Assembly: GCA_035544215.1 (NCBI GenBank)
Contig: DATKHY010000003.1
Coordinates: 697,878 to 761,877, forward strand
DNA length: 64,000 nt
DNA from: Candidatus Binatia bacterium
GTDB taxonomy: Bacteria; Vulcanimicrobiota; Vulcanimicrobiia; Vulcanimicrobiales; Vulcanimicrobiaceae
Reading direction: 5' to 3'
How positions within the stretch are numbered: the stretch's first letter is position 1; the number at the start of each line of letters is the position of its first letter. The notes beneath the pieces are model-generated. The model searched no databases. It saw only the letters and a list, made by a program, of their open reading frames with translations, and was not told the origin of the DNA. A program made the position numbers and the translations under genes. Below are positions 1-16,579 of the stretch, piece by piece.

Positions 1-2
1 AC

Positions 3-239
3 GGCGCACCCGTCATCGCAGCCAACGCCGCATCGCTGCCCGAGGCCGGCGGCGACGCAGCCCACTACGTCCCGCCCAGCGACGCCGCGGCGCTCGCAGC
101 GGCGATTCTGCGCGTCGCGGGCGACGAGCAGTACGCCGGCGACCTGCGGCGACGCGGGCCAATTCACGCGGCAGCGTTTACGTGGGAACAAACCGCAACG
201 CGGACGCTCGAGGTGATTGAAGGGACGTTGGGCGGGTGA
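3..239 (+). CDS. Glycosyltransferase family 1 (GT4-like), C-terminal fragment; 5-prime end outside the window
   Basis: Frame 3 reads GAPVIAANAASLPEAGGDAAHYVPPSDAAALAAAILRVAGDEQY...FTWEQTATRTLEVIEGTLGG, then TGA at 237-239. The G-x-PVI...SLPE..GDAA...P.D pattern is the conserved C-terminal region of GT1-fold enzymes. It is absent from the ORF track because there is no start in the window. Confidence 0.6.
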   Translation, partial: GAPVIAANAASLPEAGGDAAHYVPPSDAAALAAAILRVAGDEQYAGDLRRRGPIHAAAFTWEQTATRTLEVIEGTLGG

Positions 240-490
240 GCCAGAACCGGTCACAAGGACTCAGTGAGGGGTTCGGTGAGCCTTGCCAAGGGCCACAGCA
301 AACGACTTTTCAAACGCCCGGTCTCGGAAACTAAACGCGAGCACCTTGTTACCTACACGATTTAGATCCCAAAGGCTGCCAACGCGCTTCAGATCGCCGG
401 CTAATCGCTCGATATCTCTCGAGCCATCCTAAATTTGACTGTCATCTCCGCCGTGACCGTCTAGGCGGGCTCAAGCGTTAACAATTACGC

Positions 491-901
491 TCAGCGTGAC
501 TTGATCTCGGAGATTGCCTCATCAATTTTGGAATTTCCCGGCATCGCATCGCGCGCACGATTTAGCGCACGCGAAAGGGTGTCCCGCACCTCATATTCGC
601 CGTCCTTCGTGTGCAACGTCACCGTTACCGGATAGTCGCCATATGAGGTGGTTTTTAATACGACGTTTCCATTATCATCAGGTTGAACCGTCCGAACGGG
701 GTCATAATATGTGGGATCCAGCTCAAACTGCGCGGCGTAGACGTCGGGCGGAGGATTTTTAATTTCGAATATGACCTGATAGTGACTCTTCTGATCACGC
801 TCGATAATCTCGGGATGCCCTTGTGGATCAGTCTTAAAGCGGGCTAGAAGTTCGGGTTCTCGCATTACTAATTGTGCTCTCCGGATGGTGGCGGCGTCCA
901 C
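491..901 (-). CDS. Small soluble beta-rich protein, prokaryotic YEATS (pYEATS)-like
   Basis: 136-aa ORF. An alternative ATG at 865 lies 2 nt after the stop (870-868) of the upstream ORF. Sequence YQVIFEIKNPPPDVYAAQFELDPTYYDPVRTV...VVLKTTSYGDYPVTVTLHTKDGEYEV resembles the pYEATS Ig-fold pattern. This is from memory of the family, not a search. Confidence 0.5.
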   Translation of the reverse strand: MDAATIRRAQLVMREPELLARFKTDPQGHPEIIERDQKSHYQVIFEIKNPPPDVYAAQFELDPTYYDPVRTVQPDDNGNVVLKTTSYGDYPVTVTLHTKDGEYEVRDTLSRALNRARDAMPGNSKIDEAISEIKSR

Positions 902-1524
902 GCCGGCATAAAACTTTTGCGGATTTGGTCCGTCATCCTGTCAAGGTCGGGCGCAATCTTATCGACTGGCGGAAGTCCGTTGAATGGCCACACGCCATTT
1001 TTGGTAGCACTAAATACCGACTCATTGATCGACTTTTGAATCTGAATAACTGTCGCCATGGGATCAGGAGCTGACAGTGCGGCGAGCAGTTGCTGATTCA
1101 AACCGTTGATCGTGGCCGTACAATCGCGGGCAAACACCGCTTTGCTGACGACGTTTTCATGCTTAACGATCAACCCAAGCGCGATATAAACAGCCAAAGC
1201 GGCTACCCCAACGTAAAACCAAATGCCGGGCAACGCCGTACGGAGCGTCTCAAGCGCGTTATTGCCGGGAGGCGCCTTGCCGGAAAATACCCCGAACACC
1301 TGCGTGCCGATACCCAGCGCAAGGAGAGCGGCAATGCCATCGCTCAGATACCCGTCAAATGTTGCGAGACGGACGAACCATTGGCCGTTAACATAGCGCG
1401 CTGCAGCGATCAATGGAAGCACTTCGCGGTACAGTTTCTTCAAAATATAGTGATCGGTTGGCAGTAAGCCGACGGCTGGCGGCTGTTTCATGGTGAGCGC
1501 TGGGAACGCTCGCACAGCATTCAC
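868..1524 (-). CDS. Membrane protein (2-3 TM), YLATT-like partner of the pYEATS-like ORF
   Basis: 218-aa ORF (GTG 1524 or ATG 1491). Hydrophobic helices are GIAALLALGIGTQVFGVF and GIWFYVGVAALAVYIALGLIV, followed by a soluble C-terminal tail. It is translationally coupled to the downstream ORF. Confidence 0.55.
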   Translation of the reverse strand: MNAVRAFPALTMKQPPAVGLLPTDHYILKKLYREVLPLIAAARYVNGQWFVRLATFDGYLSDGIAALLALGIGTQVFGVFSGKAPPGNNALETLRTALPGIWFYVGVAALAVYIALGLIVKHENVVSKAVFARDCTATINGLNQQLLAALSAPDPMATVIQIQKSINESVFSATKNGVWPFNGLPPVDKIAPDLDRMTDQIRKSFMPAWTPPPSGEHN

Positions 1525-1770
1525 GCCTCTAGCCTTTTGTCAGGCTTATTACTTCCTGGCTCGGGTCGACTTGAAATCGACCCCGGGCTGCTTTGGCGGG
1601 AGGCGCCGAGCTTCTGACGCTTCAATATCAGCGCCTGCGCGGCAACGGGTTGAGCACGGCAATACTGGCGATCGGGAAAGATTCGGGCGGCCGCTCTTTT
1701 CAATGCGCTACCTCTCGGTTGATTACTTCCTGTCCTCTCGCCGTTCCACCTCTTGGCTAGTTACATGCAC

Positions 1771-1788
1771 AGCACTTAGCTAAGTGCT
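1771..1788. promoter_or_regulatory. Perfect 18-bp palindrome AGCACTTAGCTAAGTGCT in an AT-rich intergenic region
   Basis: Read directly; the reverse complement is identical. It lies between the divergent 868..1524 (-) and 2275..2769 (+) genes. A related TTAGCT-rich tract is at about 1895-1913. Confidence 0.3.
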
Positions 1789-2274
1789 CTCTTGCTGCTC
1801 TCCCTTGCTGATCACTCCGTGGTAACGCCGATTCTGAGATCAAGGTCGGACCAACCGAGGCTTTGCTACGGAGTGAATCCTATGCTAATTTGGGCTGGCT
1901 TAGCTTAGCTAGACGATATCGATCCCGCTTGTGGCACCGGTTGCGACATCCCGTCAGAAAGCTCGTCGGAGGAACAATACGGGCTATCGGTATAGACTCG
2001 CGCCGAAGCCTAAAGGAGTGTAGCTCGATTTTATCCTTTTTCGGCGCATTTCGCGATGATGAAGTCGCGGCTCTAACCGCGCAGCGTCTTCATCAATTTA
2101 AAATGCAACTCAAATTCAAAGCTCCGATTTTCAAGAAGCAGGGAGACGAGCGATGCTTATTGCGTACGCAGTACGCCACAGAACCATAGGCTTAGCGCCG
2201 GCGCGTTGTATAGAAAGACGGCCAAGTGGACACTGCGGTGGCGTGGCCGAGTCTCACCTTTGCGCGAGTGTAAA

Positions 2275-2769
2275 ATGAGTCAAGCTGCGCGCCAAGCTCT
2301 GGTAGATAACCCGAAGCTCTCATCGAAAGGCTATGACCGCGTTTCCGAGACCCATCGGACCGATCTCCTCAGCGCAGACCGAACGGATACCTATCTAATT
2401 GGAATGCTAACGTGGCTGCTTAATAATTGCGATGAGCCCATCATGTTAACCGCCGTCCGTAGCGATCATACGAACCCCGATCAGCGCTGGCTTCACAGCG
2501 GCGGAAAGGCGGTGGACATGTACCCTAAAAACTGGGAAGACCGCGAGCAGAAGGCGGTCTGCAATGTGCTGAAGGCGCTATCAGAAGACCCGTATTGCGA
2601 GAACGTAGGCCTCGGTGGGATCGTGCGACGATGGCGCACATACGTTACGTGGCCGGAGATACCGTACTTCTGGCTATTTGACGATGACATTCAAGATCAT
2701 ATCCATGCAGGGTCAGCCTGCGAACGAGATCAGACAGGCGGAGTTCGAGCATCGCACAGTAAGGGATGA
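2275..2769 (+). CDS. LAS-type zinc peptidase (peptidase M15 / DD-carboxypeptidase-like)
   Basis: ORF track gives 2206..2769 (TTG); the first ATG is at 2275 (MSQAARQ). Motifs SDH...LHSGGKAVDM (H-x-x-G-x-A-x-D) and DHIHAG (H-x-H) match the M15/hedgehog-DD-peptidase zinc site. Confidence 0.55.
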   Translation: MSQAARQALVDNPKLSSKGYDRVSETHRTDLLSADRTDTYLIGMLTWLLNNCDEPIMLTAVRSDHTNPDQRWLHSGGKAVDMYPKNWEDREQKAVCNVLKALSEDPYCENVGLGGIVRRWRTYVTWPEIPYFWLFDDDIQDHIHAGSACERDQTGGVRASHSKG

Positions 2770-2950
2770 TCCCGTAGGCGCGGGTCGTCGCGTGCATTTG
2801 CTTTAGAGATCTCCTGGGCGAGCCCTAGTTTTCTATTCACGCGCATTTGGATTAGTTACACAAGCTATGTAACTATGACGATGATTTTGCTGAGTCTGTG
2901 AGAAAGGCGCTAGCGAAAAACCAAAACAAAATAAGGCGCGCGGTGAGTTT

Positions 2951-2992
2951 AGAGAGGTGGCAGAGCGATTGAATGCGGCGGTATTGAAATGC
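2951..2992 (+). repeat. tRNA-Ser-like 5-prime-half fragment, copy 1 (not a functional tRNA)
   Basis: AGAGAGGTGGCAGAGCGATTGAATGCGGCGGTATTGAAATGC has a type-II tRNA acceptor 5-prime strand, a D-arm (GCA-GAGCGATTGAA-TGC) and a TTGAAA anticodon-loop-like end. No anticodon 3-prime stem, T-arm or acceptor 3-prime strand follows. Confidence 0.5.
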
Positions 2993-3066
2993 CACTGGAT
3001 CGCTATCAGCGCCAGTCAGCGATAGTTTGCGCTAAGGTAAAATAAGGAGTTCTCGCTCAGCGACGA

Positions 3067-3456
3067 TCACGCGAATCTGGCTCGCTGCAACCAAACTGCA
3101 ACCAAAAATCGTCGCTCGGCGGTAGCGCCCCACACGTACGGGCCGTAATTATGCGGGTTGCAGGACCCATCGTCGCTCCCGAAGTGGTACTTAGGTGGAA
3201 GATCGACGTTTGGGGCGCTATTAAGCTGCCAGCTGAGTAGCGATGAAAGCTCGCCGCGGAATTCCCGTCGCCGTAAACGGCAAACCGGCGCGTCGTCGTA
3301 AAGCGGCAATCATATGGTCGAGCCCGTGGCGCTGGGCATGAGCCCGCCGCCAGTCTGCTGCCCGCTGCAGGCGGCGACGCCCGCCGCCAGGGCGAGTGCC
3401 AGCGCCGAGCGCCGGCAGACTGTAGATTGAAACTAAGGCGAGGCGCGCCGCGTCAT
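3067..3456 (-). pseudogene. Possible decayed lipoprotein gene with two in-frame stops
   Basis: A single minus-strand frame runs from ATG 3456: MTRRASP-TAG(3435-3433)-FQSTVCRRSALALALAAGVAACSGQQTGG...STI-TGA(3312-3310)-LPLYDD...PKYHFGSDDGSCNPHNYGPYVWG. It has a lipobox-like LAAGVAAC and is interrupted twice. Confidence 0.3.
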
Positions 3457-3599
3457 GGGGCGGTCTACAAAACTGCTCGCTAGCTGATTGCGCGGGGAGT
3501 GTAAGGCGCGCGGCGGCGCCCCAACTCGCAGGGCCCAGCGCCACAAAGATGCGATTCGAAGCTGGTCGATGCCTTAATCGGCACCGAGCCGACTCGAAC

Positions 3600-4568
3600 C
3601 TACTTCGTTGTCGTCTGACCCCTCAAGAAAGCTACGAGTCCCGTGATCAGCGAAAAGAGTGCACCAAGAGCACCGCCGATACTTGCGATTACTGCTTTGA
3701 CGTCGTCTATCGTCTTAGCCTGTTTGAGGTTTATCCCAAGAACAGGGGAGGACTGGTCAGCGGTGCCACCATCCGTTTTGGCCGATATTTTGGAAACGAG
3801 TAACGTGTGGACGACCGCCGCCGGAAGCGTGGATGGTGAAATCTCGACTAAGAAACGCCAGCTGTAATTCTTACCTCCATCCTGTGTGACTGCGGCGGAT
3901 TCTGGTCGTGGAGTGACCCAGGCGATGGGATCCATTGTAACTTTCGGCGGATCTTTTGCTGGCTTATCGCAACTAACCGATACGTCGTAGGTTGCGGCAC
4001 TGCCCGGCGTCAAAGTGTCCAGACCACTAAGCACCGCGCTGCACTGCATCGGCGTCGGAACTGGCGTAGGCGTGGGAGCTGGCGTAGCCGGCGATACGGC
4101 TGATCCTGAAAGCGTCGGCATTGGCGCTGGGGCTGGAGGAATACTCGGCATCAGGGAGACCCAGGTGTAATCACCATCGATGGTTCGGGATGGCGTTTCG
4201 TGGAGAGCAAGCGCCATCGCGAAGAGTCCGACCGCCAAGAGAAATGAATAGCCGGGCCTCCACAATGGATCGCCTGTGGGCGCCGGATCCGGCGACTTGA
4301 CACTAACTGAGGCATCGGAACCTGCTGGGCCACGTGGCGGCTCTTTCACGTTCATCAGCTCGCGAGTGCGCGCAAGGTCGCTAAATATCTGGAAGACGCC
4401 AACGTTAAAGATGATGAGCGCTAAAACTGCGAGGGCCTGGCTGATATTTATGTGAATATCCCTAGCGGAAAGCACCAAATAAAATACAACCAGAAGTATC
4501 TCTGCTACCAGCAGACCTCCGATTGACAACCACTTTTGCTGCCTCGGAGTAGGGCTAAAGTCGGCCAC
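3600..4568 (-). CDS. Hypothetical membrane protein (N- and C-terminal TM helices, Pro/Thr-rich linker)
   Basis: 322-aa ORF with GTG start 4568 and GGGAGG 8 nt upstream. TM helices include LSIGGLLVAEILLVVFYLVL and ALAVLALIIFNVGVFQIF, with a C-terminal AVIASIGGALGALFSLITGLVAF. The linker is PAPTPTPVPTP. Confidence 0.6.
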   Translation of the reverse strand: MADFSPTPRQQKWLSIGGLLVAEILLVVFYLVLSARDIHINISQALAVLALIIFNVGVFQIFSDLARTRELMNVKEPPRGPAGSDASVSVKSPDPAPTGDPLWRPGYSFLLAVGLFAMALALHETPSRTIDGDYTWVSLMPSIPPAPAPMPTLSGSAVSPATPAPTPTPVPTPMQCSAVLSGLDTLTPGSAATYDVSVSCDKPAKDPPKVTMDPIAWVTPRPESAAVTQDGGKNYSWRFLVEISPSTLPAAVVHTLLVSKISAKTDGGTADQSSPVLGINLKQAKTIDDVKAVIASIGGALGALFSLITGLVAFLRGQTTTK

Positions 4569-5235
4569 GGCGTTCGACCTCCCGCTATGAAGATTCGACG
4601 CGACGCTAGCGGGCCCTTGGCTCCCTCCTCATCGTCGAAAACGGGACTCAAAAGAAGCAGAGTTCTAAAGCATTTTCCGCGGGCGCGGGTGCCGCTGGCG
4701 GAGGATGTACCTCGCGTCGGCGGTGCAACCCCCATTGGATCTACTTGCACCTGTACACCCCTCTCATGGCGGTAGCGAGAGAGATGTCTCGCGGACAAAG
4801 GCGGAAGTTCTCGCCGAGCCCCCGGACGAACTCCTGACAGGTTTGATTTCCAAGCGCGGCGCGGCTGGTACCGTCAGGGAGGCTTAACTTTACACGTCAA
4901 AGTGCCGAAGCGATGTCGCCGATCGGGACCTCGGCGCGTCCGGTTGGTACCGACCGGTCGCAATCCAATCTGGAGCATGGAGTTCAAGCGCGAGCAGCGA
5001 CGCGGCGATCAGCCATGAAAGTTTTCGGCTCCAGATTATTGTCGACATCTTCACGCGGGAGCGCCTCGCGCTCGAGGGTCCTTCCGGCTTTCGAGCACGC
5101 CCGCTGGACTACGGCCGCGAGCAAGCCCAGTTTGCATCCACTTAGCATTATGTGAGAAACCGACGGTGGCGACGTGACGTCGCGAGAAACGCGGCTACGC
5201 AAAGACTCAATAGCCATCATGGTTTGCGAGGACTT

Positions 5236-5278
5236 GGAGGGGTGGGCAGAGCGGTTGAATGCGGCGGTCTTGAAATGC
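5236..5278 (+). repeat. tRNA-Ser-like 5-prime-half fragment, copy 2
   Basis: GGAGGGGTGGGCAGAGCGGTTGAATGCGGCGGTCTTGAAATGC aligns to copy 1 with about 38 of 42 positions identical and one 1-nt gap (by eye). It ends at the same point just after the CTTGAAA (anticodon TGA) loop. No tRNA 3-prime half follows. Confidence 0.5.
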
Positions 5279-5333
5279 TTACAACAAGCCTCGACAAGTC
5301 CTCATAAATCCCATTTGACCGAGGCGGCGCTTC

Positions 5334-5357
5334 GGCGCCTGGGCGGCGTCTTTTTTT
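5334..5357 (+). terminator. Intrinsic-terminator-like hairpin plus T7 run downstream of tRNA-like copy 2
   Basis: GGCGCC-TGGGC-GGCGTC forms a 6-bp stem with one G-U pair (5334-5350). It is followed immediately by TTTTTTT (5351-5357). Confidence 0.45.
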
Positions 5358-5443
5358 CGAATTGTTAGGTTTTCTTCGTCGAAGAGGCGACGCACGCGCA
5401 TATGCTTGATCATCCAGCTCTTGCGGCGGCTCGTGGTCTCAGA

Positions 5444-8182
5444 TCAATTCGGACGCCCGGATTTACGGCTCGTTTGAACGCGTTCACGGTAGAGGAGCGC
5501 TTGCTCCTGCTTGCGCTGGTAGCGACCGACCTTCGCCAAGTTGCTAAGGATGATCGCCATTTTGGGATGACTGGGCCCCAGCTCCCGCTCGATGACGATC
5601 AACGCCCGCTCAAGGAGTGGCAGCGCCTCCGCGTATTGCCCTTGGCGTATATGAAGCGTAGCTAGATTGTTAAGGCTGACGCCTACTTCGGGGCTCTCCT
5701 CACCCAGTGCCGCCTTATTGATTGCTAATGCGCGGGTGAGCAAGGGAAGTGCCTTCGCATATCGTTTCTGGCGCTCGTAAAGCGTCGCAAGATTATTGAG
5801 ACTAATCGCTACGCCGGGATCTTCAGGGCCCAGCTCCTTTTCCTTTATTGCCAAGGCGCGCTTCAGCAACGGTAACGCCGTGGAATACTGGCGTCGTTTT
5901 ATATAAACTTCTGCGATGTTATTTAGGTTGGCGGCGACCTCAGTGACATCAAGACCTAGCCTCCGCTCGTTAATCGCCAGCGCGCGTTTCCACATGGGAA
6001 GCGCCTTGGCAAATCGCTGTTGGTCGTAATATACCAGAGCCAAATCGTTCAGGCTCTGCGCCACATCGACATGCTGAGCTCCAAGGGCCTGCTCCCGGAT
6101 TGCGAGCGCGCGTTCAAAGAGGAGCAGCGCCTTCGCATATTCTGCTCGTTCACGGTACAGCAACGCAAGATTGTTAAGGCTCCGTCCGATGTCGGGAAAA
6201 TTCGGTTCCGGCGCGCGTTCGCGAATCGCCAACGCTTGCTTATAAATAGGCAGCGCCTCGGCGTAGCGACTTCGTTGGGCCAAATATTCTCCCACCTTAT
6301 TGAAGACGCCCGCTGCCGAGTCCGTCGCCGTCTCTTTGTCTACAAAACGAGCGACCGCTTCGACGTGTTCGACTAACCTGTCACACGCATTCCAACTCTT
6401 AAAGTCTACATTTGGAAAGGTGGCAGCCAGGGCACTCACTGCGCGCCCTGTCAAGACGATCCGCTCATCCCCAGGCAGTGCGTTCAAAACAACCTCCTGT
6501 ACCATCCGATGAATACTGAAAGTGCGACTTTGACGATCGACGCTAATTAAAGAATACTGCGCCAACGGTCGAAGTAACTCGCCGACAAGCAGGTCATCCT
6601 GGTGATCCGGAAGCGCGCCTTTAATATTCTCTCCCAACACGCTCGCGCCGCGTTGGAGCAGTTCGAACGGAATAGCTGTTGGATCCCAAAACGCGCTTAC
6701 CCGGAGCACGTCTCCGGACGCGGGCCAAGAATCCTCGACTACTTTAAAGTTACTGCTCCACGTGATCGCGAGAGCCGCGTGAGCTTCTGGTCGTGCTTTT
6801 GCCAAAAGCTTTATGCCTTGTTTTTGGAGTCCATTGAGGTACGAGGAAAAAGCAGCATCGGTCGCAACGATATATGCGGCGGCTTGCTCAAGAGCGAGTG
6901 GAAAGAACGCTAAGGTTCGCGCGATCTTTTCAGCAGCGGCGCTCTCAGCGGTCGACGGCAGATTCCGGCCCGTTCTGCAAGTCAGAAAGTTAATGGCTTC
7001 TTGCGGTGAAAAGTCTGATACACGCAGTGAGCGCACGATGCCAAGCTTCTGGAGAACGGGATTGCGGGTCGTCGTCAAAATGTGGCCGTGAGGCGCGTTT
7101 GGGAGAAACGCGCGCACCAAGATCTCGTCATCAACGTTATCGAAGACCAGTAGCCATTCTCCTCCATCCCGCTCTAACGAGCCTCGAGCCGTTATTGCCG
7201 TCTCTTCCGAGCTTGGCGCCGCGATTAGCCCACGGAGCTTGGCAATCTGAACGAAGGCATCGATCAGCGTGCCGCGCGTTTCCGCATTTGCCCAGTAGAC
7301 GCCATCAGGATACTTCGCATGCTGGAGGTCTACGTAGCGAATAGCGCTTTGTGTTTTGCCAATTCCACCAACTCCAGACAGGGCTACGCAGCGTTGCGAC
7401 GTAAACTCCAATTCGATTTCCTTTACGAGGTCGTCCCGGCCTGTGAAATAGTGTGTTCGCAGGGCGTCGGGTACGTTAGGCGTAGCGGTTCGGCGTTGAG
7501 GCATTGGGACTTGGGTGCGCTCTAAGGAGCGAAACGTAAAATGCTTTGCAAGTTCCGGATATTTTGCAAACCAAGTCGATATCGGGACGACGTAGGCTTC
7601 CCTAGCGTGGTCTTCCGTTTCAGCTCGAGAGAAATGTGTTAGTCCGATAACGGCGCTCTCCACGCTTTCCAGAACGACGGGAGAGCCGCTTATACCCGGC
7701 TGGGTGTCGCCGATATCAATGAGGCGCCAGGCGTGCGGAATCTCCGCTAAAAACGCGCCAATTTGCATCCCGATCGGCGTTGGGTGGGCCAGTCTAGCGT
7801 TGAAGCGTTGAGACCCGCCTACGGGCCGAGTCACGCCTACAACAGGTGCGCGTAGGCGAAACAGCGCTGGCGACGCAGCCTCCGGAGCTTCGACTGTGTC
7901 ATGTTCGCTGGTTAATTCCAGCACGGCCACATCACGACCAGGATCGGAGCGCTCAACGCACAGTCTAGCAGTCGCTGTGCTCAACGGCTGATCGTTAGCG
8001 GAGAAGAACGTGACCGGGACCGCCCTCCGGTCCACAGCCTCCAGGATGACATGGTAGCAAGTCAACACGATCAGCGCTTTTTCAACTGGGACACAAAGCC
8101 CCTGGCCAATACGATTACCATGAGCATCACAGACGCGCACGGTTGCCTGAGAGATCAGATCCAGTCCGGAGAGCGTGCGCAT
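5444..8182 (-). CDS. STAND NTPase: N-terminal trypsin-like serine protease + NB-ARC ATPase + C-terminal TPR array
   Basis: 912 aa. Protease triad context: CYHV, GRDVAVLEL, GDTQPGISGSPVV. NB-ARC motifs: Walker A GVGGIGKTQSA, Walker B LLVFDNVDD, TTRN, and GLPLAL-like FFPLALEQAAAYI. There are about 8 KLC-type TPR units (ALPLLERALAI.E..LG..HP.VA.SLNNLA.LY). Confidence 0.9.
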   Translation of the reverse strand: MRTLSGLDLISQATVRVCDAHGNRIGQGLCVPVEKALIVLTCYHVILEAVDRRAVPVTFFSANDQPLSTATARLCVERSDPGRDVAVLELTSEHDTVEAPEAASPALFRLRAPVVGVTRPVGGSQRFNARLAHPTPIGMQIGAFLAEIPHAWRLIDIGDTQPGISGSPVVLESVESAVIGLTHFSRAETEDHAREAYVVPISTWFAKYPELAKHFTFRSLERTQVPMPQRRTATPNVPDALRTHYFTGRDDLVKEIELEFTSQRCVALSGVGGIGKTQSAIRYVDLQHAKYPDGVYWANAETRGTLIDAFVQIAKLRGLIAAPSSEETAITARGSLERDGGEWLLVFDNVDDEILVRAFLPNAPHGHILTTTRNPVLQKLGIVRSLRVSDFSPQEAINFLTCRTGRNLPSTAESAAAEKIARTLAFFPLALEQAAAYIVATDAAFSSYLNGLQKQGIKLLAKARPEAHAALAITWSSNFKVVEDSWPASGDVLRVSAFWDPTAIPFELLQRGASVLGENIKGALPDHQDDLLVGELLRPLAQYSLISVDRQSRTFSIHRMVQEVVLNALPGDERIVLTGRAVSALAATFPNVDFKSWNACDRLVEHVEAVARFVDKETATDSAAGVFNKVGEYLAQRSRYAEALPIYKQALAIRERAPEPNFPDIGRSLNNLALLYRERAEYAKALLLFERALAIREQALGAQHVDVAQSLNDLALVYYDQQRFAKALPMWKRALAINERRLGLDVTEVAANLNNIAEVYIKRRQYSTALPLLKRALAIKEKELGPEDPGVAISLNNLATLYERQKRYAKALPLLTRALAINKAALGEESPEVGVSLNNLATLHIRQGQYAEALPLLERALIVIERELGPSHPKMAIILSNLAKVGRYQRKQEQALLYRERVQTSRKSGRPN

Positions 8183-8191
8183 AGCGGCCGG

Positions 8192-8593
8192 TTAGGCTTT
8201 TTCGGCGAACTTCCAAGTTGCTGTAATTTTGAGACCCGCCGTCGATGTTGACTCGCCGGTAAGAAGAACGGGAACGATTGTCGCCCGCCCCTTCAATTCA
8301 AAGCCGAATGAAATTTCGAGTTCAAGCTCGCACGGCCTCAGGGTCTTGGCAGCATCGTGGACCTTCAATCCGATGACTCGGACGCCTTCGTTAACTACGC
8401 GAGCAGCCTCGTCAAAAACATTCGTGGCCGTCACCGCGCGGATGTGTGACTCGTTTGTTACAGGAAGGGCCTGGCCGCTGACGCGAAAGTAAACTATCGC
8501 GCTGCCGATCTGCTGAGCGATTAGGTTGGGCTGTGCAGCTGTAGGCTGGGTCTGCTCCCGTTCACCGCCAACCGCCGTTCGAATCTTACCCAT
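8192..8593 (-). CDS. Trypco2-like (CU044_2847-type) small protein, partner of the trypsin-STAND gene
   Basis: ORF track gives 8192..8617; ATG 8593 has GGAGG 10 nt upstream. The stop is 9 nt before the STAND start. The C-terminus ELELEISFGFELKGRATIVPVLLTGESTSTAGLKITATWKF matches my memory of the trypsin-co-occurring domain 2 pattern. Confidence 0.7.
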   Translation of the reverse strand: MGKIRTAVGGEREQTQPTAAQPNLIAQQIGSAIVYFRVSGQALPVTNESHIRAVTATNVFDEAARVVNEGVRVIGLKVHDAAKTLRPCELELEISFGFELKGRATIVPVLLTGESTSTAGLKITATWKFAEKA

Positions 8594-9010
8594 AGTGACT
8601 ATGCCTCCGAGTATCAAGGTTTGACTTCGTCAATGTTACAGCCGCGGCGAAGGATCCACAATCCGGTGAGTTGCCGTTAGGCGCAGTTTCGGGAAACCTC
8701 ATTCGGCATGGGATGTCTTCACCGCTTTGGCCGAAGTCAACTCAACAGCGACACAGGTCGCGAAGCGAGACCACGCGGCCAGCACCAACGTGCCCGCGAA
8801 GCAGTGGGACGAGATGGCCTCCGAGCAAGCCGCAATCCATCGCACCCTCGTCGCTTTACATCTGAGTCCGATCGAACCCGCAGGCGTGCTTGATGACCGG
8901 CTAACTGTCCAGGACTGCACGGAATTGGGGGTAAGAAGGATTGTCGATCGAGGGCGGAGCGCGGTAATATGAACCGGAGCCCCGACCTTGGGGCCCCGGA
9001 GGTCCGTGGT

Positions 9011-9733
9011 ATGATCACACGCTATGCCATCCCAGCGGGGCTCTTCGTGCTTTCGGCAGCCCTGCCCGTTGCGAGCTCCGCCGCGACGATCGCCCAGATT
9101 CGCGGCAGTCCCTCCAGCTATGCACCGGTCATCGTGGCTCAGAACATCCCTCCGTCGCCTGCGCCGCGGCCAACAACTCAGCTGCTGCCGGCTCCTGCGA
9201 CCACTTCCAAGATTCAGGCCGCTGAGGCGAATCTGCGGCACCTCTCGATTCTAAAGGGTGACTACTTCGGCGCTCCCACACCGATTGCGGGTCCTATTCC
9301 CCTGCCCAACTTTTTCGTCTTCCTCAGCCGAGCGTTTTGCATCCCACCTGCGACGGCAGTCCCGGTGACGTCGCCGTGGTATACGGCGGCGGTGCTCGCG
9401 CTCAACCGCGTTGCATCGGTCGCAGCGCCGCAACGGGTTTCACAATTGCCTCGAACCATTACTCGCGAGCAAGCCGCAGTCGACACCGTGCGAATCGCGA
9501 CCGCGAAGCATGCTATTCAATACGGCGCGTTGCCTGGACGACTCCCGGATTTTGCCGATGAATCGTCGATCGCGCCGGCTGCGCAAGATGCAGCAAAAAT
9601 GGCCGTCTTTTTGCATCTTCTCTCGGTCGGCCCCGATAACCGGTTCAATCCTCAAAGCCCATTGATTACGGGGGATACGTATCTATTGCTCAACGCGGTT
9701 AAAGTGAAGACGGGAAACAATCCATGCACGTAG
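9011..9733 (+). CDS. Secreted protein, possible SLH-like C-terminal domain
   Basis: ORF track gives 8969..9733; ATG 9011 is preceded by GGAGG. Signal peptide is MITRYAIPAGLFVLSAALPVASSAA. The C-terminus LPDFADESSIAPAAQDAAKMAV...GPDNRFNPQSPLITGD resembles an S-layer homology motif (weak). Confidence 0.55.
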   Translation: MITRYAIPAGLFVLSAALPVASSAATIAQIRGSPSSYAPVIVAQNIPPSPAPRPTTQLLPAPATTSKIQAAEANLRHLSILKGDYFGAPTPIAGPIPLPNFFVFLSRAFCIPPATAVPVTSPWYTAAVLALNRVASVAAPQRVSQLPRTITREQAAVDTVRIATAKHAIQYGALPGRLPDFADESSIAPAAQDAAKMAVFLHLLSVGPDNRFNPQSPLITGDTYLLLNAVKVKTGNNPCT

Positions 9734-11874
9734 CGCAACGCGCATTCCTGACCTTCGTAGCGATCATGTCGTTCACGATGATGCTGGCACGGAGCGGAAC
9801 GGTCGATCGCACGTGGCACAGCATCGGTCCCGGCTCCATTAACGCGCCTAAGTACGGGTGGGCGAGCGGACGCGTATCGCAGTTGATCGTCGACGATGAT
9901 GGAGCTCTGGTCGTCGCGACCGCAAACGGTGGCATCTGGCGACGTGCCGCGAGCGACCAAGGGTGGTCTGAGACCAACGCTGGACTGCAGTCGTTGGCGT
10001 TCGGGGCGATCGATCACCGCAGGAAGCTCTACGTTGCGGCAACCGGCGAAGATCACAACTGCACCGACTGTGCCTTTGGGGAAGGGGTCTACAAGAGCAA
10101 CGACGGCGGCCGTAGCTGGACCTTCCTCCCCCGGTCACCGCCAATGCGAGCAGCGGCGATACGAATAGGATCGAGCGATGGACAAGTGATTTGGCTAGCC
10201 GGTTCTACCGGCCTTTGGGAATCGATCAATGGAGGCACCTCCTGGAGTGAAAGCGCACACGACGGTGGAACAGAGTTCATCGATCCCACATCGGTACTCG
10301 TCCTTCCAGGTGACAAAACGGTCATCGTCGGCGATCGGACGGGATTATTTCGAAAAACCAAAGACGATACCGACTGGAAGCTCTTGAATGTCAATCCCGT
10401 TGCCGACCTGCAGCAATATGACTCCGACACGGGCGTTGAGAGCGCGCTTGCGGTCGCGGAAAGTGATCCATCTGAGATCCTGGCCAGTTTCGTGGTATCG
10501 AACACTAATTACGACTACGGTTGCCTGGCGGGACTCTTCATTAGCCACAACACGGGAGACACGTGGACGCAAATCGACGTTGACGACTATGCGAACAGCC
10601 AGAACTTCTATACGCACGTCGATCCCACTGACTCCTCCGTTGGGTGCCAAGGCTGGTACGATGATGCTGTCGCGATCAACCCCACGAACCCGCAGGACAT
10701 CGCCGTTGGCGGATTAACGATTTTTCGATCGTTCGATGGCGGCCGGAGTTGGACGAATCTCGCTCGCGCAAATGGCATCCACCCGGATGTCCACACGCTT
10801 ACGTACGACACGACCGGAGATCTCTATGCGGGGGAAGATGGTGGCGTGGTGGAATTCCCAGCCAATGGCTCTCCGCTAAATCTCAATCAGCATCTAGCAA
10901 TCACGCAATTCTACGGCGATGCGTCGCTGAGTGGCGATGGCACGATCGTCGACGGAACGCAAGACAACGGCACCACTGCCATCAGGGGTACGCTCCAGAG
11001 TCTTGCGCAAGCGCCCACGCCAGCTTGGACGGGGGTTTTCGGCGGCGATGGAGGCAATACGATCATCGACCCGCATGATAGCCAAGCCATGTATGCTGAG
11101 CATTACAATGGCACCCTCTTTTCAACCACAGATGGCGGCGCGAATTGGAAGTTCATCGGTCCCCCGGTAACGGCCGTCGACTGGGTCATGCCATTTCTCG
11201 TGACGACGGATTGGCAAACGATCCTCGCCGGTGGCGATAATGTGTATCGCACAACCACAGGAGGCCAAGGCGGTTCGGCGTGGACTTCGCTTGGACCGTG
11301 GGCTGAACCATCTCCGCATACCTCCGCCGATCCATACATAACGGCCCTCTGGGCGTCGAGCGATGGGAAAATGATAGTCGCTGGTAGGACCGACGGCCAG
11401 CTCGCGAAGATGGCTACGACATCACAATGGTTGAAACCGCCGCAGACTATCGGCAGCGGTCGGATCGCGAGTATTGCGGTCGACCCGCGGGATCACCGTC
11501 ACGCCTTCGTAAGCCTTGCCGACCCCAGTAGATGTAGTATCGAGGAGACCGCCGACTTCGACGCCGTCGCTTCTCAATGGAAAGACGTCACAGGAGATTT
11601 GAAAGATTGTAAGCCGATCGCGCTACAAAAATACGATTGGTTCGACACGAGAACGGCGGCCCTGGCATTTCTCTCCGATCGACTGTTTGTAGGAACGGAA
11701 AGCGGTGTATTCGAGGAAACCAGCCCATCACACTGGTGCCTCCTAGGCGATGGATTGCCGCACGTACCCATCAAGGCGCTTCTCTTCGTGCCCCCTCAAT
11801 CGCTTGTGGCATTTACGCACGGGCGTGGTGCGTGGTACCTAAGTGACATCACCATGCAATGTCAAGTGAGGTAG
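9724..11874 (+). CDS. BNR/Asp-box repeat beta-propeller protein (sortilin/GH74/Ycf48-like)
   Basis: 716 aa with repeated S-x-D-x-G-x-(S/T)-W boxes: SNDGGRSWTF, SINGGTSWSE, SHNTGDTWTQ, SFDGGRSWTN, STTDGGANWKF. The N-terminus is hydrophobic. It overlaps the upstream gene by 10 nt. Confidence 0.8.
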   Translation: MHVAQRAFLTFVAIMSFTMMLARSGTVDRTWHSIGPGSINAPKYGWASGRVSQLIVDDDGALVVATANGGIWRRAASDQGWSETNAGLQSLAFGAIDHRRKLYVAATGEDHNCTDCAFGEGVYKSNDGGRSWTFLPRSPPMRAAAIRIGSSDGQVIWLAGSTGLWESINGGTSWSESAHDGGTEFIDPTSVLVLPGDKTVIVGDRTGLFRKTKDDTDWKLLNVNPVADLQQYDSDTGVESALAVAESDPSEILASFVVSNTNYDYGCLAGLFISHNTGDTWTQIDVDDYANSQNFYTHVDPTDSSVGCQGWYDDAVAINPTNPQDIAVGGLTIFRSFDGGRSWTNLARANGIHPDVHTLTYDTTGDLYAGEDGGVVEFPANGSPLNLNQHLAITQFYGDASLSGDGTIVDGTQDNGTTAIRGTLQSLAQAPTPAWTGVFGGDGGNTIIDPHDSQAMYAEHYNGTLFSTTDGGANWKFIGPPVTAVDWVMPFLVTTDWQTILAGGDNVYRTTTGGQGGSAWTSLGPWAEPSPHTSADPYITALWASSDGKMIVAGRTDGQLAKMATTSQWLKPPQTIGSGRIASIAVDPRDHRHAFVSLADPSRCSIEETADFDAVASQWKDVTGDLKDCKPIALQKYDWFDTRTAALAFLSDRLFVGTESGVFEETSPSHWCLLGDGLPHVPIKALLFVPPQSLVAFTHGRGAWYLSDITMQCQVR

Positions 11875-11935
11875 CGACCACAGTACTCTAATAGGTGTCA
11901 CCTCACCGAGCCTGAGTTATCGTCCGAATTGTCAC

Positions 11936-12259
11936 TCATCTGCTGACGCCTTCAGACGTCCCAGATTGCGCGGTTCCGTGACAATCAGGAGTGCTTCGTG
12001 GTATCGGCGGGGGTGGGGGCGGTGGAGGCGCAACCGGGTCGATTACTTGCGCATGCTTGGGCTTGTCATGCGGCTTGCCCTGACAACCTGAGTTTGGTGG
12101 CGTTGGCGCGGGCGCAGGCGTCACTTGCTCAATCTTTTCTATGGGCACGTAGGGATCAGCGACCGCAAATATGACATCCCTAAAGCCAGTCCCATATTTT
12201 TGGCCACGGGACATCATACACGATGCTAAAACTCCGGTGAAACACAATTCAAATAGCAA
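11936..12259 (-). CDS. Hypothetical Pro-rich small protein
   Basis: 107-aa ORF downstream of, and co-directional with, 12284..12844. It contains PAPAPTPP and PPPPPPPPIP tracts. No recognisable domain. Confidence 0.3.
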   Translation of the reverse strand: MLFELCFTGVLASCMMSRGQKYGTGFRDVIFAVADPYVPIEKIEQVTPAPAPTPPNSGCQGKPHDKPKHAQVIDPVAPPPPPPPPIPRSTPDCHGTAQSGTSEGVSR

Positions 12260-12283
12260 CTTAACCGTCCTCGCGGTGACCTT

Positions 12284-12844
12284 CTATTTTAGTATCGTGA
12301 TCGTGTAGACGAACTTGATGTATAAGTAGAAAAAGACTAGGCTGACCGTTAGTATCAGCAGCCCGATCGAGGCGGACTGTATTTCGACGCCCTTCAGATT
12401 CGCCGTAAACGTGCTCACGTCAGCAGCTGCCTGGGCTTTGGCAAGCCATACGCCCTTCAGAAACTGCAAAATCGAGAGTGCCAAGCCAACAAAGACTACA
12501 ATCAATACGAATACCAAAATGACATAGCCCGTGCCACGCTGGGATTGCAGCGCTGCGACATTTGCCTTCTCCTTGATAAGCTGCTGCTGGTAATACGGCG
12601 TGGCAAAATCCCGCCAGTACGACGTTTGAAACTGATCGTAAGCGCGGCCGACAGTAGGGGGTATTGCAGGAGTCGCTACCGGAGAGTTAGCGGGTTGTGA
12701 CCCCACATATGACGGCACGCTAACAACAACATTGTCAACAGAACCACGCCGAGCGCCGAGGACTGATGCATTCGCAAAATCTGTCTCCTTGCGGGTCTTA
12801 GCGCGTTCAGCATGACTGAATCTAGCTATTCGGGTCAGAAGCAA
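12284..12844 (-). CDS. Hypothetical 2-TM membrane protein
   Basis: 186-aa ORF (TTG start, uncertain) in a low-GC stretch. C-terminal helices are GYVILVFVLIVVFVGLALSILQF and ASIGLLILTVSLVFFYLYIKFVY. Confidence 0.55.
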   Translation of the reverse strand: MLLTRIARFSHAERAKTRKETDFANASVLGARRGSVDNVVVSVPSYVGSQPANSPVATPAIPPTVGRAYDQFQTSYWRDFATPYYQQQLIKEKANVAALQSQRGTGYVILVFVLIVVFVGLALSILQFLKGVWLAKAQAAADVSTFTANLKGVEIQSASIGLLILTVSLVFFYLYIKFVYTITILK

Positions 12845-13045
12845 GTAGGCCCTACCTCGAGGCCAGAACGTCCCGATCTGGTACCTTACGTGATCGTTTG
12901 CTTACTCAACAAGCAAACGCACCGGGCCTGCTGTCTCTTGCAAAGCTTCCACCCGCATGCTAGCCTCAGTGGTGAGGCCATTCGGCCTTCCAGTCATCGT
13001 CCTTCCCGGACTGCGCCTCGTTCTGAAGTCTGCTAGGAGCCTCGC

Positions 13046-14695
13046 ATGCTTCGTCGTTTGCTCGCTGTGTTGGCGCTCGCGGCAATCCTCGCTACGCTCT
13101 TTTCTCCTAGGCGGGCGGACGCGGGATGGGTCTGGGACGGGCATACTTGGACGGTCGCGATCGTGTCCGCGATTGGAGCCGCTGCAGCTGGATACTTTCT
13201 TGCGTACGAGTCCGCCATGCTCCGTTCAAAAGGCAGTGTCAAACAGGGTGAGACTGTAATGCGCTTGACGCTTTTTGGCTCGCCCAAAAGCATCGCGCCT
13301 ACCCCCGATCCGCGACAACTAACCCTACAAGCCTTGCGCGGAATCGTCATGGCTGATATTGCCTACGAGCTTACTGCCCCTAACATCAATCCCGTAACGC
13401 AGATTCATTGGCGCACAAAATTCGAAACGCTGCGGAGTTGTTGGAATACGGCGCTAGTCACGCCGCCGACCCCCGTGCCAAGCCCCTCCGCTTCGCCCAC
13501 GAGCTCATCGACGAGCTCCCCCAGCCCAACACCTAAGCAATCAAAGAAACAGAGCTCGTCCAAAAAACCGAAGGGACAGAAAACGGCCGGCCCTGGCACC
13601 AACCAAACTACCTACACGGGGCTGAGGCTCGTCGTCGCGTACGACCCCACGCGTCTTGGGACAGACACCGGGCTAGCGACCGGCCAGGTCGGCTACGCCG
13701 GATCGCCAGCTCCGTCTCATCACCCTTCCTCTCAACATCCGAAGAAAAAGCGCACCCCGACGACAAAACCTAGCCATTCCCCAAGCCCGTCGCCATCGCC
13801 ATCGCCGTCGCCGTCGCCGTCGCCGAGTCCCTCGGCGACGCCGGCCAAGCCAACCTGTAACGACCTCTTTAACGATGTTATGGATTCGTACAGCGGCGAC
13901 ATCAAAAAAGCCAATGTGCTAGTTGCTTCGTACTCTCGCCCAGCACCCGGCTCCGGCAAGAGTTCGCCAAGCCCCTCGCCTCTGAGTTCGGCCGATGCGG
14001 AGGCACTCGCGTTTCGGCTTCAGACGCAAATCGACACCACGGACCTCGCAGCTTACCTCTCGACGTCACCAAGTCTGCTGTCCCAGGTCGTCAATCAAAA
14101 TGTCGGCTCGTACGTCACCGACGACTATGTGCGCAATCTGTTTCTGGCAACGGCGGCCATTAAATTCATTAATACGCTTCCCACGCCGACGCCCACGCCA
14201 ACGCCGACTCCAAGGCCGGGAACGAAGAATATAAGCCTTCCACCGATCCTTTCGCTGCTCCAGCCGGTGGCTTCGGACTGCCCTGGCGTCAACGCTATTA
14301 CTTCGGGTTTAAAGTGCTTGAACGATGTGAGCTCCATCGAAGTCGCCTTCGCAAACGCGCATATCCAGCGCGAAGCGTGCTACTGGAGCAAACACGTAAT
14401 CATGCCAACCTACAGCGACATCGAGCTTTGGGCGCAGCGGCGGGGGCCTTACGAGGAAACCGGTGCGGCCATTCTGGGAAGGAGTGCTGGCAGCACGCCG
14501 CCGCCGACCCAGGCGCTGATCACAGTCAACCTCGGCGACTTCCCAGGCAGCCTTAACAGCATCGATCCGGGCAGCGTGTACATCAACGGCCTGTTCACGG
14601 GAGGATCATACGAGCCGACGTCTTTGCAGGCCGTGGATGCAATGAACGCCATCAACGCTGATATGACCGTTCTCACGATGCCATCGGGTTGCTGA
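13046..14695 (+). CDS. Secreted/membrane-anchored Ser/Pro/Thr-rich protein
   Basis: 549 aa. The signal MLRRLLAVLALAAILATLF is followed by a second hydrophobic helix (VAIVSAIGAAAAGYFLAY). It has long SPSPSP and PTPTPT linkers and a folded C-terminal part. No known domain recognised. Confidence 0.7.
   Translation: MLRRLLAVLALAAILATLFSPRRADAGWVWDGHTWTVAIVSAIGAAAAGYFLAYESAMLRSKGSVKQGETVMRLTLFGSPKSIAPTPDPRQLTLQALRGIVMADIAYELTAPNINPVTQIHWRTKFETLRSCWNTALVTPPTPVPSPSASPTSSSTSSPSPTPKQSKKQSSSKKPKGQKTAGPGTNQTTYTGLRLVVAYDPTRLGTDTGLATGQVGYAGSPAPSHHPSSQHPKKKRTPTTKPSHSPSPSPSPSPSPSPSPSPSATPAKPTCNDLFNDVMDSYSGDIKKANVLVASYSRPAPGSGKSSPSPSPLSSADAEALAFRLQTQIDTTDLAAYLSTSPSLLSQVVNQNVGSYVTDDYVRNLFLATAAIKFINTLPTPTPTPTPTPRPGTKNISLPPILSLLQPVASDCPGVNAITSGLKCLNDVSSIEVAFANAHIQREACYWSKHVIMPTYSDIELWAQRRGPYEETGAAILGRSAGSTPPPTQALITVNLGDFPGSLNSIDPGSVYINGLFTGGSYEPTSLQAVDAMNAINADMTVLTMPSGC
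13777..13834 (+). repeat. In-frame hexanucleotide (TCGCCN)n microsatellite encoding (SP)n
   Basis: ccaagcccgtcgccatcgccatcgccgtcgccgtcgccgtcgccgagtccctcg encodes SPSPSPSPSPSPSPSPSPS. A second (ACGCCN)n tract encoding PTPTPTPTP lies at 14183-14212. Confidence 0.7.
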
Positions 14696-14759
14696 CAGCG
14701 TTGGAGCGTTACAAGATGAGAAAGTCATACATTACGACCGCTATAAAAGGGGATTCATC

Positions 14760-15551
14760 GTGGGACATGCATTCTTGCCTCTTGATGTTACAGCGGCTGC
14801 GCAGACGCCTGGTACGGCAACGTGGCCTAACTTTACGGGCACTCCTCAGCTCGTTGGGTCGAGCACCAGCGGTCGTGTAACGGTTTACATTGATGCATCA
14901 TATCCTGATGCGATGCAGAACGCCACGGACCTTATCCACGATGCCGATCGCGTCGTTACGGCCAACGATGGGATTTTCGGGACCAGCGGCTCGCCCGTCA
15001 ATGTCCTTATATGGCAGCTAAACGGAAAAAACGACGGCACCGGCGGGGCGGACCACGCATCCTGCGACTACGCGGCGGGGGCTAATATTGAGGTTTGCGC
15101 CTCTATAGGCGCCTCAAACCGCGTTTCGGCGCTTTTTGAGGCGGAGTTGAGCGAGTGCTCTATGGGCGGCAACCTCTGCGGGGTGAGTACCGGTGAGACC
15201 CTCTCACGCTGGTGCTCGGCGGTGATCGGTAACAACGCGCTCCCCGACTTCGTCAGTGCTCCCACGTGGGCACAAGATGGAATGCCCAACTGGGTCGACC
15301 AAACAAAGCAGAGCGACCAGGATTACGATAGCATCGGCTGCGGGATGGCCTTCTTGTCATGGTTGATGCACAGGGGAAATTATTCTCTAAGTTCCATTGC
15401 TCGCGCGATGGTCTCATTGACAGCTTCGGGGACGCTGGCACAGCTTTACGCAGGTTTGAGCGGCGACGCGGCAGGAAACGCCTGGCCCACCTTTTCTACC
15501 GCAGTCAATGCTCTACCCAACGACGTCGTCAACGATGATCCGTTCGGTTAA
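14760..15551 (+). CDS. Hypothetical Cys-rich protein, no signal peptide, immediately upstream of GH25 lysozyme
   Basis: 263-aa ORF (GTG) with conserved-looking Cys pairs (ASCDY, EVCAS, SECSMGGNLCG, RWCS, IGCG). No domain recognised. It lies 64 nt after 13046..14695 and 75 nt before the GH25 gene. Confidence 0.6.
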   Translation: MGHAFLPLDVTAAAQTPGTATWPNFTGTPQLVGSSTSGRVTVYIDASYPDAMQNATDLIHDADRVVTANDGIFGTSGSPVNVLIWQLNGKNDGTGGADHASCDYAAGANIEVCASIGASNRVSALFEAELSECSMGGNLCGVSTGETLSRWCSAVIGNNALPDFVSAPTWAQDGMPNWVDQTKQSDQDYDSIGCGMAFLSWLMHRGNYSLSSIARAMVSLTASGTLAQLYAGLSGDAAGNAWPTFSTAVNALPNDVVNDDPFG

Positions 15552-15626
15552 AGCGACACAGCGATAACATTCTTTGTTACGAATACGCTGCACTTCCTCA
15601 ACCTTAAGAATAGGAATCACAACATC

Positions 15627-16250: not shown

Positions 16251-16259
16251 CGCGGAGCG

Positions 16260-16556: not shown

Positions 16557-16579
16557 TTTGCGCCGAGTGTCTAACCGCG

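Follow-up and report, generated by a model that had tools for sequence, protein, structure and literature searches.

A stand-alone prokaryotic YEATS domain invariantly paired with a SLATT-like two-helix membrane protein: a candidate conflict cassette in a low-GC island

Close to the left end of a 64,000-nucleotide (nt) stretch of DNA from Candidatus Binatia bacterium (assembly GCA_035544215.1, contig DATKHY010000003.1, positions 697,878 to 761,877; the whole stretch is referred to as the window), two adjacent minus-strand genes encode a membrane protein and a small soluble protein. The question raised by this locus is whether the two products together form a biological conflict system and, if so, what would act as its sensor and what as its effector. 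The initial annotation had described them as a prokaryotic YEATS (pYEATS) protein with a three-transmembrane conflict module. This description is supported in part. The pYEATS identity and the strict pairing hold, and a sporadic distribution, a low-GC (guanine plus cytosine) island and a single homologous operon with a TIR gene lend support to a conflict reading; the count of three transmembrane (TM) helices fails, given that only two segments of the partner reach TM-like hydropathy. With little more than even confidence, we lean to reading the pair as a self-contained conflict cassette of two genes that moves horizontally: pYEATS would sense a ligand and thereby gate a membrane effector of SLATT-like type.

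The gene pair and its products

Both open reading frames (ORFs), at 868–1524 and 491–901 on the minus strand, were confirmed from the ORF list and by direct reading of the sequence, and both are regarded as real genes because each has many intact homologues. Three starts are publicly annotated for the larger gene, GTG 1524, GTG 1515 and ATG 1491, yielding products of 218, 215 and 207 amino acids (aa) respectively, and an AGAGG sits 10 nt upstream of GTG 1515. For the smaller gene, public gene callers use ATG 865 (124 aa); GTG 901 would yield an overlapping form of 136 aa. The two arrangements proposed for the junction, an overlap from the start at 901 or a separation of 2 nt between the TAG at 870–868 and the ATG at 865, were both read in the sequence. 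The features of the pair are as follows.

868–1524, minus strand: gene for the two-TM (2TM), SLATT-like membrane protein, 215–218 aa, delimited by the ORF, the annotated starts and the family homologues
1279–1341, minus strand: TM helix 1, about residues 62–82 (KD19 hydropathy peak 1.75 at residues 64–82; family mean 1.33)
1162–1227, minus strand: TM helix 2, about residues 100–121 (KD19 peak 2.10; family mean 1.88; helix 101–122 in the AlphaFold2 (AF2) model)
868–1161, minus strand: predicted cytoplasmic helical tail, about residues 122–218, with RAxLARxC, PM, WPW/LPP and W209 conserved in the alignments
863–882, minus strand: coupling junction, with GGAGAG at 882–877, the TAG stop at 870–868, 2 nt, and the ATG at 865–863
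491–865, minus strand: stand-alone pYEATS gene, 124 aa, identified by Pfam PF20305, the AF2 model and Foldseek
596–781, minus strand: extent of the Pfam match to the pYEATS core, holding LDPTYYDP (Y53) and TSYGDY (Y75 and Y78), whose numbered tyrosines are predicted to form the aromatic cage

Profile, fold and motif all identify the small protein as a prokaryotic YEATS domain. The 124-aa product matches PF20305 with an E-value of 4.2e-9 and 36.6 bits, above the gathering cut-off of 26.9 bits, and a whole-genome scan with the same profile (37.7 bits) identified it as the sole copy in the genome. The eukaryotic YEATS family, PF03366, is the second Pfam match and falls below its cut-off (15.6 bits versus 22; E 0.016). 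An AF2 model built with 13 homologues as input (pLDDT 94.4, pTM 0.87) has eight strands and, at the C-terminus, two helices; the earlier description of a soluble, all-beta protein is therefore correct for the eight-stranded part, and the two helices mean that the fold is not purely beta. When this model was compared with the Protein Data Bank (PDB) by Foldseek, the top 50 matches were all eukaryotic YEATS structures (GAS41, Taf14, Yaf9, ENL, AF9 and YEATS2), with TM-scores of about 0.5 and E-values of 7e-5 to 3e-3. A profile of the 13 homologues searched against PDB sequences gave nine weak matches (E 0.5–1.6), all of them to Yaf9 or Taf14, in which LDPTYYDPVR aligns with LHDTYPNPVR of Yaf9 and TSYGDY aligns with TGWGEF. 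We take these two loops to be the ones that form the acyl-lysine aromatic sandwich in the AF9 and Yaf9 structures. The pYEATS-like identity first proposed is upheld by the above-threshold Pfam score, the exclusively YEATS top-50 fold matches and the aromatic motifs.

Of particular interest is the behaviour of the putative cage residues. Y53, Y75 and Y78, which align with Y, W and F of Yaf9, are invariant in the 13 close relatives; when 27 relatives are compared, 24 have an aromatic residue at both position 53 and position 75, and the remaining three have one at neither. This joint loss is the pattern expected of a functionally coupled pair. The cage histidine of eukaryotic YEATS domains is mostly aspartate in the pYEATS relatives. 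At three loci (L014, L016 and L017), Y53 is replaced by D or H and Y75 by S, A or T, together with Y78F; judging from these substitutions, the ligand site may be altered or lost there while the 2TM partner is kept. Elsewhere, one genome of an uncultured alphaproteobacterium (G412) carries a 50-residue pYEATS remnant that has no TM partner (L018, 4001–4150) as well as a protein of 475 aa (L028, 4116–5540) that ends in a pYEATS domain (E 4e-11) and whose N-terminal ~370 aa match no Pfam family.

The partner of pYEATS is a membrane protein with two TM helices. The window protein and the averaged profile of 75 relatives both show only two segments of TM-grade hydropathy, and the N-terminal helix (residues 25–43), with a KD19 value of about 0.3, is amphipathic. 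The two to three TM helices with a soluble tail that had been assigned to this product therefore resolve to two, with a helical tail and no third TM segment at the N-terminus. The AF2 model is all-helical (pLDDT 72.8), with helices at residues 125–149, 156–175 and 187–204 after TM2, and its Foldseek matches in the PDB are generic helical bundles only (E at least 1.4, TM-score at most 0.25). The charges flanking the hairpin, read by the positive-inside rule, suggest an N-in/C-in topology with the tail in the cytoplasm, which is consistent with a pYEATS protein that has no signal peptide and with the fusion of pYEATS after the tail in one homologue, P0120.

The window TM protein has no match in Pfam, NCBIfam, PADLOC or PHROGs. 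Given that a profile of five TM orthologues recovered 196 clusters (50% identity) from 1.84 billion cluster representatives, 111 of them at an E-value of 1e-10 or better and nearly all of about 200 aa, the protein belongs to a real, un-named family; a further homologue search with the TM profile gave 10 proteins, none of them annotated. The name YLATT, which the initial annotation had attached to the membrane module, is absent from the searchable literature, in which the founding paper on pYEATS is itself lacking, and no YLATT-named model of Pfam, NCBIfam or PADLOC matches the window TM protein or its 75 relatives. If a family was described under this name, the window 2TM protein, as the invariant partner of a pYEATS clade, is presumably that family.

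Profile comparison points to a resemblance between the TM protein and the SLATT proteins that is specific but distant, partial and sub-threshold. In single scans of 75 family members, SLATT_5 (PF18160) was the sole recurrent Pfam family, appearing in six of them with a best E-value of 3.7e-5; none reached the gathering cut-off of 29.5 bits, and the window protein itself had no SLATT_5 match. The comparison set consisted of 12 genuine SLATT_5 proteins from proteobacterial genomes, SLATT_5 not being found in 401 genomes of the window's own phylum. When the 75-sequence family profile was aligned with these 12 by hhalign, a probability of 79% and an E-value of 1.6e-5 were obtained over 64 columns, which run from the end of TM2 across the two helices that follow and include an RA....C motif common to both families, whereas controls with reversed profiles and with 30 column-shuffled profiles gave probabilities of at most 0.3% and E-values of at least 0.19. 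In a relaxed alignment the two families also stay co-linear over the N-terminal helix and the two TM helices. An earlier SLATT_5 profile of four sequences had reached a probability of 7% only, indicating that the match depends on profile depth. The protein is called SLATT-like, and not a SLATT member, because the ENH..DY motif of SLATT_5 is missing and the Pfam cut-off is passed by no member.

The genomic surroundings of SLATT_5 itself are informative in this respect. In 4 of the 12 sampled loci (L027, L034, L037 and L038) the SLATT_5 gene adjoins or overlaps an RVT_1 reverse-transcriptase gene of ~440–460 aa, which is a defence-type context, and this adjacency illustrates that such 2TM proteins usually serve as a membrane partner to a soluble component. 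At a further locus (L036) the SLATT_5 gene adjoins the specificity subunit of a type I restriction–modification system.

Linkage, distribution and genomic surroundings

The pairing of the two genes is invariant across deep divergence and sometimes takes the form of a fusion. Among the close loci, counted as those with a complete pYEATS of the window clade and found with the pYEATS alignment, pYEATS is directly preceded by the TM gene on the same strand in all 13 distinct cases, the window included, with junctions that are either 4-nt overlaps or gaps of 1–3 nt. Five distant members of the TM family, 17–24% identical to the window protein, are each directly followed by a pYEATS gene (5/5), and over all homologous pairs, close and distant, the junctions are overlaps of 4 or 17 nt or gaps of 1–38 nt. 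In P0120 (326 aa) the TM module and pYEATS are a single fusion protein. Co-conservation in other genomes, as the initial annotation had anticipated, is thus seen as adjacency in 18 of 18 loci together with one fusion. Neither of the two observations that the initial annotation had named as refuting, a small protein of a fold unrelated to YEATS or a pair that is not co-conserved, was made. No third gene recurs among the neighbourhoods of the homologous loci. The divergent 187-aa, peptidase-like ORF next to the operon was considered as a third partner and rejected, a BLASTP search (E up to 10) against ORFs of at least 70 aa in 17 homologous loci having found no relative.

The distribution of the pair is sporadic, in the manner of horizontal gene transfer (HGT). 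The host belongs to the Vulcanimicrobiota/Eremiobacterota, its EF-Tu sharing a 90% cluster with that of Candidatus Tumulicola; the 10 homologous loci in reference genomes, on the other hand, are all from proteobacterial metagenome-assembled genomes (eight alphaproteobacterial, one labelled 'uncultured proteobacterium' and one betaproteobacterial, Nitrosovibrio), a cross-phylum spread at 45–68% identity, and a more distant pair is present in Nitrosomonas sp. Nm34. The TM gene was not found in 36 same-genus and 24 same-order or same-class genomes (0/60), and the pair was likewise not found in any of 80 relatives of Pseudolabrys, a proteobacterial carrier. In 14 of 17 loci the GC content of the pair is below that of its flanks, by up to 15 points.

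At the window locus this bias extends well beyond the two genes. The genome (3.23 Mb, nine contigs) has a GC content of 64.4%, with a standard deviation of 3.6% and a 1st percentile of 54.1% for intervals of 2 kb. The interval 124–2123 of the window stands at 54.1%, and values of 54–60% are maintained to about 18 kb after a sharp left edge at about 250, which follows a GT4 glycosyltransferase gene of 70% GC. The island accordingly measures about 18 kb; the AT-rich patch of 250–3100 that had been described is real in its low GC content and far too short in its extent. The island and its contents besides the pair are listed below.

250–18000, no strand: low-GC accessory island, drawn from the GC profile, with the pair at its left edge, holding a trypsin-STAND-TPR gene and a GH25 lysozyme gene
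1525–2205, no strand: ORF-free region of 680 nt between the 2TM–pYEATS operon and the divergent 187-aa gene (from the sequence and a repeat scan)
2206–2769, plus strand: divergent 187-aa ORF with an H..GGKAVD ... DDIQDHIH pattern, recognised by eye and reminiscent of LAS/M15-type zinc peptidases
2959–2992 and 5245–5278, no strand: direct repeat of 34 nt, 94% identical, copies 2.3 kb apart (repeat family D5)
5444–8182, minus strand: 912-aa protein combining Trypsin_2 at the N-terminus with DUF7779 and numerous TPRs (NCBIfam FxSxx-COOH TPR model, 332 bits versus 300)
15627–16250, plus strand: GH25 lysozyme, endolysin-like, from the library scan, 14 kb from the pair
16632–17423, no strand: five tandem units of 132 nt (44-aa repeats) in a gene at the right end of the island (repeat family D1)

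From its predicted domains, the 912-aa trypsin-STAND-TPR protein is a STAND-type conflict protein lying in the same island as the pair. The 187-aa ORF matches nothing in Pfam, PHROGs or NCBIfam. The ORF-free region upstream of the operon contains a perfect 18-bp palindrome, AGCACTTAGCTAAGTGCT, at 1771–1788 and a 16-nt direct repeat, GGCTTATTACTTCCTG / GGTTGATTACTTCCTG, at 1543–1558 and 1717–1732 (repeat family D18); 1525–2205 may be a regulatory region in which the palindrome and the direct repeat serve as putative operator sites, and a scan of the operon's upstream region for sigma-70-type promoters and terminators gave no signal exceeding that of shuffled sequences. A link between the tRNA-like repeats at 2959–2992 and 5245–5278 and the pair was rejected, as both copies fall on the right-hand side of the pair instead of flanking it; ARAGORN found no tRNA within 1–12000.

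Other carriers differ in what surrounds the pair. In Nitrosomonas sp. Nm34 (FORD01000028.1, L019 456–2604) a same-strand operon encodes, in order, a 136-aa protein of unknown kind, a 235-aa TIR_2 protein (E 3.6e-25), the 2TM protein and pYEATS; the genes are spaced 1, 55 and 8 nt apart, and an AEP/PriCT/VapE primase gene follows 3 kb downstream. A transposase helix-turn-helix fragment and a DUF5675 gene lie near a second pair (L020). Together with the window, these make three places where the surroundings are of a conflict type. The neighbours of the alphaproteobacterial copies, in seven loci, are transport, metabolic and DNA-repair genes, so that an association with defence islands is confined to a minority of loci. 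No TIR gene lies within the window island, and among the 18 loci Nm34 is the only one with an adjacent TIR. The window genome has eight TIR_2-domain genes, five of them in open frames of ~880–940 aa, which is a large complement for its size of 3.2 Mb.

Possible functions of the pair

The pYEATS domain was reportedly introduced by Burroughs and Aravind in the Journal of Bacteriology in 2020. It is cited as a ligand-binding domain of conflict systems in a 2026 preprint by the pYEATS authors, the only searchable paper in which the term occurs. The reading of the present pair as a mobile conflict cassette takes as its basis the domain identities, the two TM helices, the strict pairing with one fusion, the sporadic HGT-like distribution and the island context; beyond these, we infer a physical interaction, a ligand, damage to the membrane and a role in defence. 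Gene 1 would encode an inner-membrane protein that begins with an amphipathic helix, crosses the membrane as a hairpin of two helices and ends in a helical cytoplasmic tail of ~100 aa, and gene 2, translationally coupled to it, would encode a cytoplasmic stand-alone pYEATS with an intact predicted aromatic cage. The two proteins would most likely form one complex, with pYEATS docking on the cytoplasmic tail, to which it is covalently joined in the fusion P0120. In the role of sensor, pYEATS would bind a ligand that appears upon infection or other insult, for which an acyl-amide-bearing peptide and a small molecule derived from NAD+ or a nucleotide are candidates, the NAD+-derived option being considered because the TIR-containing operon of Nm34 hints at it. 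Ligand-bound pYEATS would then release its 2TM partner or drive its oligomerisation. SLATT effectors have been proposed to act through an oligomeric, membrane-permeabilising state, and the oligomerised 2TM protein might permeabilise or depolarise the membrane, so that the infected cell would stop growing or die, as in abortive infection. A more specific form of this proposal is a minimal anti-phage system of one sensor and one effector, in which the pYEATS cage would recognise an infection-specific acyl-amide (a modified lysine or a small metabolite), as in histone readers, and would directly gate a SLATT-like pore. This form is tentative, and we hold it to be rather doubtful.

Several points count against a conflict cassette. 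The link to SLATT is sub-threshold in the profile comparisons, the confident hhalign stretch being limited to 64 columns and the window protein having no Pfam match, and the model of the TM protein is of moderate confidence only (pLDDT 72.8) and has no fold match in the PDB. PADLOC, PHROGs and NCBIfam give no match for either protein. The alphaproteobacterial copies are surrounded by ordinary housekeeping genes and by no defence genes, and in the window no signal-generating enzyme adjoins the pair, the eight TIR genes of the genome all being distant.

Given the TIR gene of Nm34, which immediately precedes 2TM–pYEATS in a shared operon, and the eight TIR-domain genes of the window genome, it is possible that the pair is instead the effector arm of a Thoeris-like TIR pathway acting in trans, pYEATS binding an NAD+-derived signal and opening the 2TM effector in a manner comparable to the Macro-TM proteins of type II Thoeris. 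However, this is unlikely: an adjacent TIR is found at only 1 of 18 loci, the nearest TIR gene in the genome is ~56 kb away, most of the TIRs belong to STAND-type proteins of ~900 aa with a logic of their own, and nothing shows a YEATS cage binding nucleotides. About as improbable is an addiction pair of the toxin–antitoxin type, in which the 2TM protein would be constitutively toxic and pYEATS, sensing no ligand, would neutralise it stoichiometrically and so stabilise mobile DNA. Such a pair would account for the tight translational coupling and strict pairing, for the sporadic HGT-like distribution and the GC content below that of the flanks, and for a small soluble partner encoded downstream of a membrane protein, but the putative toxin gene comes first and a fusion exists, both unusual in a labile-antitoxin design. 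Furthermore, the conservation of the cage residues and their paired covariation speak for a ligand site, and most copies reside in chromosomal housekeeping contexts and not on plasmids or prophages.

Those housekeeping contexts, seven alphaproteobacterial loci with transporter, metabolic and DNA-repair neighbours, would suit a membrane-associated module for sensing or housekeeping outside any conflict, for instance one that follows the state of the envelope or of metabolism through an acylated ligand and has no role in defence, as would the lack of a match in libraries of defence systems. We give this a slightly smaller chance still, since it sits poorly with the extreme patchiness among close relatives (1/61 and 1/81 genomes), the cross-phylum spread at 45–68% identity, the atypical GC content, the lack of conserved synteny beyond the pair, the similarity to SLATT effectors, and the TIR and mobile-element contexts. 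Finally, the endolysin-like GH25 gene at 15627–16250 in the same island, and the possible LAS/M15-type peptidase encoded by the divergent 187-aa ORF at 2206–2769 (H..G.AVD ... DHIH by eye), raise the possibility that the membrane protein is a holin-like part of a phage lysis cassette. This was already disfavoured and is highly improbable, given that neither protein has a PHROG match, that the GH25 gene is 14 kb away, that the peptidase-like neighbour does not recur by BLASTP in 17 homologous loci, that the Pfam scans of the homologous neighbourhoods list no lysozyme or endolysin family, and that 215 aa with a cytoplasmic domain of 100 aa is atypical for a holin.

To the picture of a pYEATS-containing conflict cassette the present analysis adds that the membrane partner is a SLATT-like 2TM protein, that the pairing is invariant, and that the YEATS cage residues are retained and co-vary. 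Whereas pYEATS has a curated Pfam entry, none of Pfam, NCBIfam, PADLOC and PHROGs contains its obligate membrane partner. Should the cassette prove to be a defence system, it would bring a new sensor fold to the theme of a sensor coupled to a 2TM effector, and would give an indication of the role of the YEATS fold before histone reading. If the acyl-amide-gated, anti-phage form were true, it would represent a new class of abortive-infection sensor and would link chromatin readers functionally to bacterial immunity.

Comparison with known systems

A search of PADLOC-DB v2 at E-values up to 1 returned 0 families for either protein, and the pair, so far as its genes allow it to be classified, belongs to the computationally predicted kind of system that is known from genes alone. 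With the pYEATS proteins of PF20305 it shares a score above the gathering cut-off, the fold and the aromatic motifs; it is set apart in that it stands alone, with no fusion to TIR, ParA or another enzyme, in that it is obligately paired with a 2TM protein, and in that it carries two extra C-terminal helices. Its likeness to the eukaryotic acyl-lysine readers (GAS41/YEATS4, Taf14, Yaf9 and AF9/ENL) lies in the Ig-like beta-sandwich and the retained sandwich aromatics, with LDPTY corresponding to LH(D/E)(T/S)(Y/F) and SYGDY to G(W/Y)G(E/A)F. It differs from them in a PF03366 score below the cut-off, in a cage histidine that is mostly aspartate and in the lack of a chromatin context.

As in Thoeris-type TIR systems with membrane effectors, a small ligand-binding domain is coupled to TM helices, and one homologous operon contains a TIR gene. 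Type II Thoeris combines a Macro domain with TM effectors (PMC11204291). In contrast, no TIR gene is present at the window locus nor at 17 of 18 loci, and the sensor fold is YEATS and not Macro or SLOG; the pair is not a member of the Thoeris-type systems.

The SLATT family is named for its SMODS and SLOG partners, and the sampled SLATT_5 genes have a reverse transcriptase beside them in 4 of 12 loci, whereas the partner of the window TM family is pYEATS in 18 of 18 loci. The ENH..DY motif of SLATT_5 is replaced in the window TM family by PM, WPW..LPP and W motifs. In both families an amphipathic helix carrying a conserved R-L motif precedes two TM helices, helices bearing RA....C come after them, and the product is a small membrane-bound companion of a soluble sensor or enzyme.

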